Below are positions 15,080 through 15,620 of a stretch of DNA of 52,126 nucleotides, in pieces. The notes beneath the pieces are model-generated. The model saw nothing but the letters and a program-made list of their open reading frames with translations. It did no database searches and had not been told where the DNA came from. The position numbers and the translations under genes are program-made. Each line of letters begins with the position of its first letter. The first letter of the stretch is position 1. The stretch spans positions 1-52,126 of the forward strand of contig MHLC01000007.1 in assembly GCA_001818655.1 (NCBI GenBank), in the 5' to 3' direction. Source of the stretch: Candidatus Liptonbacteria bacterium RIFCSPLOWO2_01_FULL_56_20 (GTDB taxonomy: Bacteria; Patescibacteriota; Minisyncoccia; UBA6257; 2-01-FULL-56-20).

Positions 15080-15118
15080 TTATGCCTTAGGACTTTTCGC
15101 GCCGTATTTTGACCTCTG
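15080..15118 (-). pseudogene. relic duplicate of the rpsL 3' end ([16 protein letters not shown])
   Basis: CAGAGGTCAAAATACGGCGCGAAAAGTCCTAAGGCATAA lies 4 nt upstream of the rpsG ATG. It is a diverged copy of the working rpsL end at 15204-15245 and shares an 11-nt perfect core, CAGAGGTCAAA. Confidence 0.6.
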
Positions 15119-15192
15119 TCCCGACGCTCCGCCTGCTCCGACCGTAGCGTCGGAGATCGGGACTCCGACCGCTACGAAACGGCGCGTCGGAG
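15119..15192 (+). repeat. family-B hairpin element, copy B1 (74 nt)
   Basis: TCCCGACGC...GCGTCGGAG outer stem. Alternating CTCCGAC/GTCGGAG arms and a CGGGACTCCGA core, shared with 31056-31127. Confidence 0.65.
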
Positions 15193-15203
15193 CTGCCGCT
15201 TTA

Positions 15204-15620
15204 TTATTGTATCTTTGGTTTCTTTGCTCCATACTTTGACCTCTGCTGTTTCCTCCCTTCAACCCCCGTCGTGTCAAGAACGCCCCGCACCACGTGGTAA
15301 CGGACGCCCGGCAGGTCTTTTACGCGCCCGCCGCGGATTACCACGATCGAGTGCTCCTGGAGGGCATGCCCTTCGCCAGGGATGTATGCGGTGACTTCCA
15401 TGCCGTTCGTGAGCCGCACGCGACATACTTTTCTGATGGCCGAGTTCGGCTTCTTGGGGGTCGTGGTGAACACCTTGAGGCACACGCCCCTCTTGAAAGG
15501 CGAGGAAGAATCAACCGGACGGTTCTTCAGGGTATTAAAATAGTACGCCAATGCGGGCGATTTGGTTTTCGCTTTCGCAGACGTCCTTCCCCGCTTTACC
15601 AACTGACGAAGAGTAGGCAT
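15204..15620 (-). CDS. rpsL: 30S ribosomal protein uS12
   Basis: [21 protein letters not shown]...[13 protein letters not shown]. Carries about 12 extra aa near the N-terminus relative to E. coli S12. Confidence 0.95.

Follow-up and report, generated by a model that had tools for sequence, protein, structure and literature searches.

The window analysed here, a 52,126-nt stretch of DNA (contig MHLC01000007.1 of assembly GCA_001818655.1), derives from a population of Parcubacteria, members of the Patescibacteria or candidate phyla radiation (CPR), that was recovered from aquifer samples as a metagenome bin. It has a G+C content of approximately 57%, and its sequence is also found in GCA_001004965.1, in GCA_001818545.1 and in numerous groundwater and sediment metagenomes. 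The feature under study is the 3' end of rpsL, the gene encoding ribosomal protein S12, which is present twice, with a hairpin between the two copies. On the minus strand, a gene for an M50 peptidase is followed by rpsL (15620..15204), by rpsG (15075..14608), which encodes ribosomal protein S7, and by fusA (14299..12194). The rpsL open reading frame (ORF) encodes 138 aa; the Pfam domain Ribosom_S12_S23 is assigned to an identical protein, and homologues are 85–98% identical.

The working rpsL gene terminates in a live 3' end (copy T2, 15204..15245, minus strand) that consists of an 11-nt core, diverged last codons and a stop, and reads CAG AGG TCA AAG TAT GGA GCA AAG AAA CCA AAG ATA CAA TAA, followed immediately by a second TAA. 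This second stop codon opens an 85-nt insert (15119..15203, minus strand), the remainder of which forms one long imperfect hairpin. Beyond the insert lies a relic of the same coding end (copy T1, 15080..15118, minus strand), which is out of frame with rpsL and reads CAG AGG TCA AAA TAC GGC GCG AAA AGT CCT AAG GCA TAA; it ends 4 nt (TACT) upstream of the rpsG ATG at 15075, includes an AAGG Shine–Dalgarno-like motif for rpsG and keeps the start region of the downstream gene. The core, CAGAGGTCAAA, is a perfect 11-nt match between the two ends (15245..15235 and 15118..15108). The copies are 127 nt apart and were independently recovered by a repeat finder as a 44-nt repeat of 73% identity. Their agreement, amounting to 10 of 11 amino acids and 25 of 33 nt, exceeds chance, as the maxima reached in 2000 shuffles of the downstream 300 nt were 7/11 and 21/33. 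This arrangement had been described in a first-pass annotation made from the sequence alone, and direct reading of the sequence confirmed the observation with every coordinate; the 74-nt element named 'B1' in that annotation corresponds to 15119–15192 and is a part of the 85-nt insert. An open frame of 65 codons (15080–15277, minus strand), shifted by +1 with respect to rpsL, begins within rpsL, spans the hairpin and ends at the stop of the relic; it is probably fortuitous.

The downstream copy occupies the position in which rpsL ends in related organisms. Among 80 related genomes, with S7 proteins 55–79% identical to that of the window, the rpsL stop codon mostly lies 0–30 nt from the rpsG ATG, sometimes overlapping it, and typical protein tails are RPKA, RPK or RPKAK, similar to the SPKA tail of the relic. 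Both the position of the stop and the tails support the earlier proposal that the working end is a replacement and the downstream copy the ancestral terminus. No rpsL relics were seen in those relatives that have longer rpsL–rpsG gaps. The 33-nt tails, live and relic, score 13–28/33 against every relative and are too short to discriminate between placements.

Of the differences between the two rpsL ends, 7 fall on the 13 third codon positions and 4 on the 26 first and second positions, which bears out the claim that the differences are mostly synonymous; the stretch QRSKYGAK is identical in both, with five synonymous differences. Codons that are rare in the genome occur in the live tail (GGA, 16%; GCA, 15%; CCA, 10%), whereas the relic uses preferred ones (GGC, 50%; GCG, 54%), and a low G+C content at third codon positions (GC3, approximately 0.36, against 0.70 in the gene body) is restricted to the last ~15 codons of rpsL. 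The divergence of the two copies is as large as that found between candidate phyla, yet the relic contains neither an indel nor a premature stop. For rpsL itself this pattern is suggestive, and only suggestive, of a foreign patch as opposed to a local duplication followed by decay; the case becomes strong when the other loci with the same layout, described below, are added.

The junction is neither an assembly collapse nor a strain chimera. A 200-nt segment covering it shows no differences among 10 contigs that originate from different samples and assemblers and are 99.7–99.98% identical to the window overall, a 128-nt rpsL–rpsG gap is present in all 29 blocks encoding the S12 or S7 protein of the window, and single Logan unitigs (k=31) from four public runs cross the junction without differences. 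Among the Logan contig joints listed, there were no skips of 127 nt or 149 nt of the kind expected from excision. One short contig (L101; JGI 3300009285, 1485 nt) is identical to the window from the M50 peptidase gene to rpsL codon 104; beyond that codon it has a diverged rpsL end (tail RPKAK), another rpsG and, between the two, 38 nt of spacer in which neither hairpin nor relic is present. The contig is either a natural product of recombination inside rpsL or a chimera created during assembly.

The 85-nt insert is predicted to fold into a hairpin with CTCCGAC/GTCGGAG arms, with a minimum free energy of -53.1 kcal/mol (z = -2.9; none of 200 shuffles was as stable). It contains neither an ORF nor a recombinase gene, and the neighbouring ORFs are rpsG, the M50 peptidase gene and housekeeping genes. 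In the first-pass annotation the hairpin had been assigned to a repeat 'family B', a designation that did not survive closer inspection: a pattern search of the window confined the CTCCGAC...GTCGGAG arms to 15136–15192, and blastn-short recovered the insert from no other place, whether in the window or in the 1.3 Mb of related loci. A 16-nt match to the hairpin in one related locus (L191) and the general pattern CCGAC-N6-GTCGG were both rejected as signs of relatives, neither being enriched. In a search with Rfam 15, only tRNAs reached the thresholds in the window, and the rpsL insert gave no match. Long imperfect palindromes of unrelated sequence, often with short periodic motifs, are found between rpsL and rpsG in many relatives (L012, L046, L053, L077, L083, L086 and L090), and this position seems to be prone to acquiring hairpins.

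Two further sites in the window have the same layout, that is, a live gene end, an insert and a relic of the gene end, as had been reported. The first is a gene for a GT2-like glycosyltransferase (24755..26299, minus strand), recognized from the motifs QQRRW and FWVTPK in its sequence, without a Pfam hit at E ≤ 0.01. The last 22 codons of this gene (ending in SPESGKGVGGKHKGSPVSEDRR and a stop) run into the insert. The live end (GFWVTPKWRS, 24814..24851, minus strand) is joined to the gene body, and the relic (ending in GLWVTPKWRSQNLL and a stop, 24657..24700, minus strand) has its stop 7 nt upstream of the ATG (24649) of a gene for a Kelch-repeat protein. The two copies are 92% identical over 26 nt and differ by the synonymous pairs GTG/GTA, CGT/CGG and TCT/AGC; the commoner codons are again in the relic and not in the live copy. 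This duplication is fixed in all strains sampled. The DNA between the copies is a structured element, here termed R1 (24689..24828, core 24701–24812, plus strand and hence antisense to the gene), which was scored by cmsearch at 88.2 bits (E 8.5e-20). It comprises hairpins P1 and P2, an extra hairpin, P3 and a closing stem formed with the flanking target copy, and it can be aligned to inserts in two related loci (L029 and L025). In one strain (L228) the GT2-like protein is called at 499 aa, with a stop 13 nt earlier, such that the read-through tail encoded by R1 varies within the population.

The second site is an intact tRNA-Arg (TCG) gene (16414..16486, plus strand; identified by ARAGORN and scored by Rfam at 59.2 bits), which is followed by a 53-nt insert (16487..16539, plus strand) with two small hairpins, CGCTCC..GGAGCG and CGCCC-TATC-GGGCG, and by a relic of the tRNA 3' part from the T loop to the discriminator base (16540..16567, plus strand; 79% identity over 28 nt). 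A run of 19 nt of the relic, CGAATCCTGGCGGGGGCGC, is identical to the live tRNA. The insert is not R1.

A tandem duplication at 16638..16773 (minus strand) had been listed with these sites. The duplication is real, consisting of two 68-nt units that are 81% identical (live unit 16706–16773, relic unit 16638–16705), each made up of the 3' end of a small ORF (16914..16723) and a terminator-like hairpin; there is, however, no insert between the units, and the duplication is polymorphic in the population. The differences between the units are mostly nonsynonymous. Strain L004 carries a single hybrid unit, composed of the left part of one copy and the right part of the other, and this allele represents either an empty or a resolved site; either way, it shows that recombination between such copies takes place within the population. 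The four sites are not of one kind: the insert at the GT2-like gene is R1, those at rpsL and tRNA-Arg are not, and the tandem lacks an insert altogether.

Searching the 80 related loci (411 kb) for peptide repeats lying close together uncovered the same layout in other species. In all, these loci show approximately eight comparable events, against three and the tandem in the 52-kb window; gene-end duplication around small inserts thus belongs to the clade and is not special to this genome, in which there is at most a modest excess. At the fusA 3' end of locus L058 (5290–5460), a live end encoding NVAQGIIEARK is separated by a 78-nt hairpin from a relic encoding NVAQTIIEARK, and the copies differ by eight third-position changes and an AGA/CGC arginine switch. 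At other loci it is the fusA 5' end that is affected. In L036 (2981–3210), 9 of 12 codons carry a third-position change, with first and second positions untouched, whereas the duplicated 5' ends in L025 (3046–3300) and L029 (3088–3340) are almost identical copies. In these fusA 5'-end duplications, the junction lies directly after the AHID codons. The inserts in L025 and L029 resemble each other and also resemble the insert at the GT2-like gene of the window when it is read on the plus strand, while L036 carries a different insert, with two hairpins, at the same fusA junction as the R1 copies. At fusA codon 21, an insert is present in L025, L029, L121 and L036 but absent from the window. No unusual likeness of the T2 copies across hosts was seen in the four fusA cases.

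The inserts of L025 and L029 and that at the GT2-like gene were used to build a covariance model of R1, which identified further copies in L026, L013, L033 and L019, and a scan of JGI metagenomes with the conserved pattern added at least 71 more matches in 81 loci. In total, at least 74 distinct copies, of about 120 nt each, have been found in Patescibacteria. Among the matches listed, 45 of 67 copies located away from contig edges are flanked by a direct repeat of 15–86 nt (median, 27 nt) with a period of 114–209 nt (median, 178 nt), and a tRNA gene on the opposite strand has its 3' end directed toward R1 in 25 of these 45, with 15 tRNA identities represented. Other targets include the first 9–21 codons of fusA, lepA and typA, with the junction after IIAH(I/V)D, the 5' end of rnhA and further genes. 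The order of the parts is constant: a truncated target copy, which stops exactly at R1, the core, a short segment that repeats the final ~15 nt of the target in inverted orientation, a spacer and a second target copy, whose start lies at the gene boundary or past it and which runs on into the intact gene. An insert between a truncated and a complete copy of a gene end is common to rpsL, the GT2-like gene, tRNA-Arg and 45 of 67 R1 copies.

The structure of R1 is strongly supported by covariation. In the core, P1 is variable while P2, P3 and the linkers are conserved; pairing is retained in 93% of cells, compared with 70% in shuffles and 36–57% when the partners are slid, and double changes occur in 34 of 37 pairs, with the closing stem changing with every target. 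As to the strand of the element, 65 G–U pairs were counted against 44 A–C pairs, which does not discriminate between the two orientations. A segment on the 3' side of the core is complementary to the ~13–16 nt directly upstream of the insertion point and covaries with them over 67 copies at unrelated targets. At GTPase genes (L154, L172, L118 and L025), the AHID histidine codon next to the junction is altered in the truncated copy (AQID, AQVD, AHSD and AHNN), and at tRNA targets it is the T loop that is altered, for example GGGAGTCGAAC versus GGATTCGAAC; because of these changes, the ~10 nt directly preceding the core seem to be part of the element rather than of the target.

R1 appears to be a conserved and previously undescribed family of structured elements. 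The copies of L025 and L029 gave no Rfam hits at E ≤ 1, and no description was found in the literature searched. A viral origin was rejected, as IMG/VR returned one hit for one pattern and none for the other. The rpsG–fusA spacer of the window was tried as a member of the family and rejected with the search filters off. This spacer is unusually long (308 nt), and much of it is occupied by a copy of a second repeated structured element, which has three copies in the window (14380–14540, 31665–31820 and 470–560) sharing GGAAGCTCTCGGAGGCGT..GAGCTTGGTCTCCGA..ACGCCGAGAG; no gene-end relic was seen beside any of the three.

The coding history of the duplicated ends can be followed across the R1-flanked protein genes, in which, among the matches listed, the copies differ at first, second and third codon positions 26, 20 and 79 times, respectively, corresponding to 63 synonymous and 37 nonsynonymous codons. 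In some pairs, the differences are confined or nearly confined to the third position (9/9 in L154, 8/9 in L118). The observed third-position share of 63% compares with at most ~47% expected under neutral drift, by a rough estimate. Neutral drift of a relic from an identical duplicate would not be expected to preserve the protein sequence or to favour third positions. Moreover, the identity between copies peaks at the junction and drops toward the gene boundary in nine pairs out of ten, those of rpsL and the GT2-like gene among them. Nearly or fully identical flanking copies are nevertheless found at some R1 insertions (L025, ~62 nt; L117, 61 nt; L173, 74 nt; L141, 86 nt), and therefore young or within-lineage insertions also exist.

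Several other features of the window were recorded. An ORF at 17080–17814 (plus strand) encodes a 244-aa protein with an N-terminal helix-turn-helix (HTH) and an 'ALYWAEGSKTK' motif, and ends at the first base of a tRNA-Lys gene (17815), 2 kb from the rpsL insert. Proteins of this type (235–244 aa) are encoded in the window and at six loci and are 58–77% identical across many Patescibacteria, being widely conserved in the CPR; distant homologues (28%) adjoin R1 copies in a few loci. The protein has no sequence match in Pfam, PHROG or PDB, and its AlphaFold model (pLDDT 84) gave only weak hits, including a non-significant one to the LAGLIDADG endonuclease I-DmoI (E 0.06, TM 0.25). In recG (17890–20091, plus strand), a 30-nt in-frame hairpin-forming insertion (CCCGCCAAGGGCGAGGCTCGCCAGAGGCGG) is present at 19585 in one run (X1) and is also implied by the 743-aa RecG of GCA_001004965.1, compared with 733 aa in the window, and thus represents an insertion polymorphism within a gene in the population. 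Additionally, fusA is approximately 33 nt shorter in strains L002 and L006 (690 versus 701 aa), with a short unalignable stretch at ~14100–14144.

The organization of the rpsL site may best be accounted for by a small ORF-less cassette that carries a surrogate gene end, a reading that we regard as evenly balanced between right and wrong. According to this proposal, a 127-nt foreign patch would have replaced the last 13 codons of rpsL. The patch would consist of a surrogate S12 C-terminal coding sequence with a double stop, the 85-nt hairpin and the second 11-nt core, and would have been joined to the chromosome by recombination in the highly conserved core coding for QRSK. The native end would have been displaced downstream, where it would persist as the holder of the rpsG translation start region. 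The patch would represent one of a class of ORF-less cassettes common in Patescibacteria, each of which would interrupt a conserved gene near one end and bring its own copy of that end, leaving the gene intact. Entry can be envisaged by a double crossover, with arms formed by the truncated copy on one side and by the complete copy plus gene body on the other, or by way of a small circle that integrates via the gene-end copy it carries. By both routes, the junction-proximal parts of both copies would be donor-derived, the distal part of the relic native and the complete copy foreign. Either route would produce the observed gradient of identity, since the junction-proximal part would travel with the cassette while the distal relic is native, as well as the excess of synonymous differences, the uninterrupted gene and the native appearance of the relic next to the following gene. 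The 68-nt tandem polymorphism is a further point in favour of a cassette, as it indicates that duplications are gained or resolved by recombination between copies. For rpsL, we infer the arrival of such a cassette and not a single accidental recombination event, with its spread presumably mediated by DNA uptake and host recombination and with no need for an enzyme encoded by the element.

A number of observations weigh against the cassette proposal. The mobility of the rpsL patch is deduced from layout only, because no relative of the insert was found in the window or the related loci, and the R1 model applied with filters off to the rpsL and tRNA-Arg inserts gave best scores below 8 bits (E > 0.5). 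No empty rpsL site with an SPKA tail was found among the strains and close sisters examined, every sampled strain having the patch. A query with the C-terminal part of S12 proteins did not find a donor lineage with a KKPKIQ tail, and the nearest S12 sequences (97–98% identical) carry yet other tails. The codon statistics at rpsL concern 13 codons only. At R1, clustering of ORFs from 80 loci returned housekeeping families and no mobility gene beside the element, and the cores do not group by target, a pattern more in keeping with frequent retargeting or concerted evolution than with strict homing lineages. The proposal also does not account for how a cassette would gain a new target and the inverted copy that matches it, nor for the role of the R1 core.

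The first-pass annotation had offered three explanations, of which a compensatory duplication fits worst, while an element with a surrogate end and the scar of a one-sided recombination both remain. The latter is a serious rival for rpsL, since it would give the same picture, and we consider it possible though doubtful. It would involve no mobile element: a DNA fragment from another Parcubacterium, with its rpsL and native hairpin, would have recombined homologously in rpsL at one end and been joined illegitimately within the recipient's own rpsL 3' end at the other, in a single event of homology-facilitated illegitimate recombination. Suitable donors exist, as long palindromes are native between rpsL and rpsG in many relatives, and the single-copy nature of the rpsL insert, which has no family, agrees with a single event. 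The foreign-looking codon usage of the live tail fits equally well, and the switch at codon 104 in contig L101 would also speak for recombination at this place if that contig is a recombinant and not a chimera. However, the restriction of low GC3 to the last ~15 codons leaves no long foreign anchor upstream, and the right-hand joint lies exactly at the homologous position, with the 11-nt core repeated, which is unexpected for a random illegitimate joint. In addition, the layout, with a new copy starting at a gene boundary, recurs at three to four sites within 10 kb and in other species, and at least one conserved element family is responsible at recurring sites.

An event without any foreign DNA is unlikely. 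Insertion of a hairpin with a long target duplication, or slippage or template switching, would have created identical copies that subsequently diverged. The identical or nearly identical copies flanking R1 in L025, L117, L173 and L141 accord with such an origin, as does the failure of R1 cores to cluster by target, and the short inverted target copy that R1 carries beside the direct copies is a pattern that template switching can generate. Nonetheless, an untranslated relic should change equally at all codon positions, whereas the differences observed are concentrated at third positions with the amino acids kept, including the TCT/AGC and AGA/CGC changes. Furthermore, it is the relic, and not the live copy, that contains the codons preferred by the genome, and it has acquired neither an indel nor a premature stop at a divergence on the scale of that between phyla.

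It is very improbable that the rpsL hairpin is to be understood as a selected cis-regulatory RNA of the str operon, such as an S7 operator, a processing site or a stabiliser, with the duplication being the means of its installation. In E. coli, S7 represses translation through binding to the S12–S7 intercistronic RNA; the hairpin is far more stable than its shuffles, and structured rpsL–rpsG spacers recur in many relatives, although their sequences are unrelated. These spacers, however, share no conserved sequence or structure, the hairpin has no Rfam match, and a regulatory role would leave unexplained the surrogate coding end as well as the same layout at a tRNA gene and at a gene with an antisense insert; it would also be compatible with a cassette origin and is not an alternative to it. 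Finally, an artefact through collapse or chimerism of co-occurring strains, for which the metagenomic source and the chimeric appearance of L101 near rpsL might speak, can be dismissed for practical purposes, as the junction is the same in more than 20 contigs of different samples, years and assemblers and is covered by single unitigs of four runs, and an 11-nt repeat is unable to mislead assemblers with k ≥ 31.

A broader proposal, made tentatively and less likely to be true than not, is that R1 and, by extension, inserts of the rpsL type constitute an undescribed class of ORF-less mobile elements. Such an element would be a structured nucleic acid of ~120 nt that base-pairs with the DNA just ahead of the site at which it inserts, enters highly conserved genes (at the T-loop region of tRNAs, the G1-motif codons of translational GTPases and the S12 C-terminus), carries a portable gene end by which essential genes would outlast the insertion, and spreads from species to species via DNA uptake and host recombination or by means of a trans-acting enzyme. 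If the target pairing of R1 is indeed functional, the element would amount to a new minimal and programmable insertion system; the pairing could equally be a by-product of insert formation. R1 lends itself to direct testing, given its covariance model, at least 74 examples and defined junctions.

On the proposed reading of the rpsL site, the end of an essential and highly conserved ribosomal protein gene can be swapped by a foreign patch of little over 100 bases. In the regions sampled, gene-end duplications at small structured inserts occur in Patescibacteria approximately once per 50 kb and affect tRNA genes, fusA, lepA, typA, rnhA and rpsL. In annotation, they account for the unusual C-terminal tails, the pseudo-tRNA fragments, the short 'leader' ORFs and the extended intergenic spacers seen in these genomes. 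They may also be a visible trace of recombination between species in organisms thought to depend on DNA uptake.

Among known systems, short GC-rich hairpin inserts without ORFs, located at gene ends or within genes and tolerated by the host, are familiar as repetitive extragenic palindromic (REP) sequences and bacterial interspersed mosaic elements (BIMEs), Correia elements, Rickettsia palindromic elements and the double-hairpin or repetitive hairpin elements of mitochondria. Elements of these kinds have target duplications of 0–10 bp and many near-identical copies, and bring no replacement piece of a gene. At rpsL, in contrast to elements of this type and to miniature inverted-repeat transposable elements, the duplicated segment is 39–44 nt long and diverged, and the insert has a single copy in the window and no further one in the related loci. 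Group II introns and bridge RNAs resemble R1 in its base pairing with the sequence upstream of the insertion point, but R1 has no intron domain, reverse transcriptase, recombinase or Rfam match, and the rpsL insert displays no such pairing. A diversity-generating retroelement was rejected for rpsL, as the differences between the copies (G/A, T/C, A/C, A/G, A/T and others, at third positions) are not adenine-specific; no reverse transcriptase is found among the genes within 3 kb of the site.

Closer in layout are the genomic islands and prophages that integrate at the 3' ends of tRNA, tmRNA and protein genes, which they restore, and are bounded by attL and attR. They are likewise flanked by imperfect direct repeats of the gene 3' part, with an identical core and with the gene-proximal copy supplied by the element, and at tRNA sites they cut in the T loop region. 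Direct repeats of this type, derived from the 3' part of the target and with an identical core, are present at rpsL (44 nt, 73% identity, 11-nt core). Islands, however, carry an integrase and kilobases of DNA, whereas the inserts described here are 50–190 nt long without an integrase and also hit gene 5' ends, and R1 adds an inverted target copy that pairs with the truncated copy.

The closest known match to rpsL, by analogy of layout and of the pattern of evidence, is provided by the mitochondrial gene hybrids that arise through mobile endonuclease ORFs (mORF elements), which have been reported for atp6 of Allomyces macrogynus (Paquin, Laforest and Lang 1994, as cited in PMC3630166) and for atp6, atp9, cox2 and nad3 of Glomus (Beaudet et al. 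2013, PMC3630166). In these hybrids, a foreign C-terminal part is fused in frame and the native part is left downstream, unused; the inserted part has diverged much further in nucleotide sequence (64–81%) than in protein, and the native part matches close relatives (PMC3630166). The mORF elements carry an endonuclease ORF, which has been shown to drive mobility (PMC3630166). The foreign in-frame C-terminal part, the retained native part and a nucleotide divergence much greater than that of the protein are shared with rpsL. The rpsL patch (127 nt) and R1 (~115–210 nt), on the other hand, have no ORF and no endonuclease consistently nearby, the host is bacterial, and tRNA genes and gene 5' ends are among the targets. 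The rpsL site is best regarded as a new form of gene-end-replacing mobile DNA that lacks an ORF, which in evolutionary terms would be a bacterial counterpart of the mitochondrial gene hybrids that operates without an endonuclease gene.

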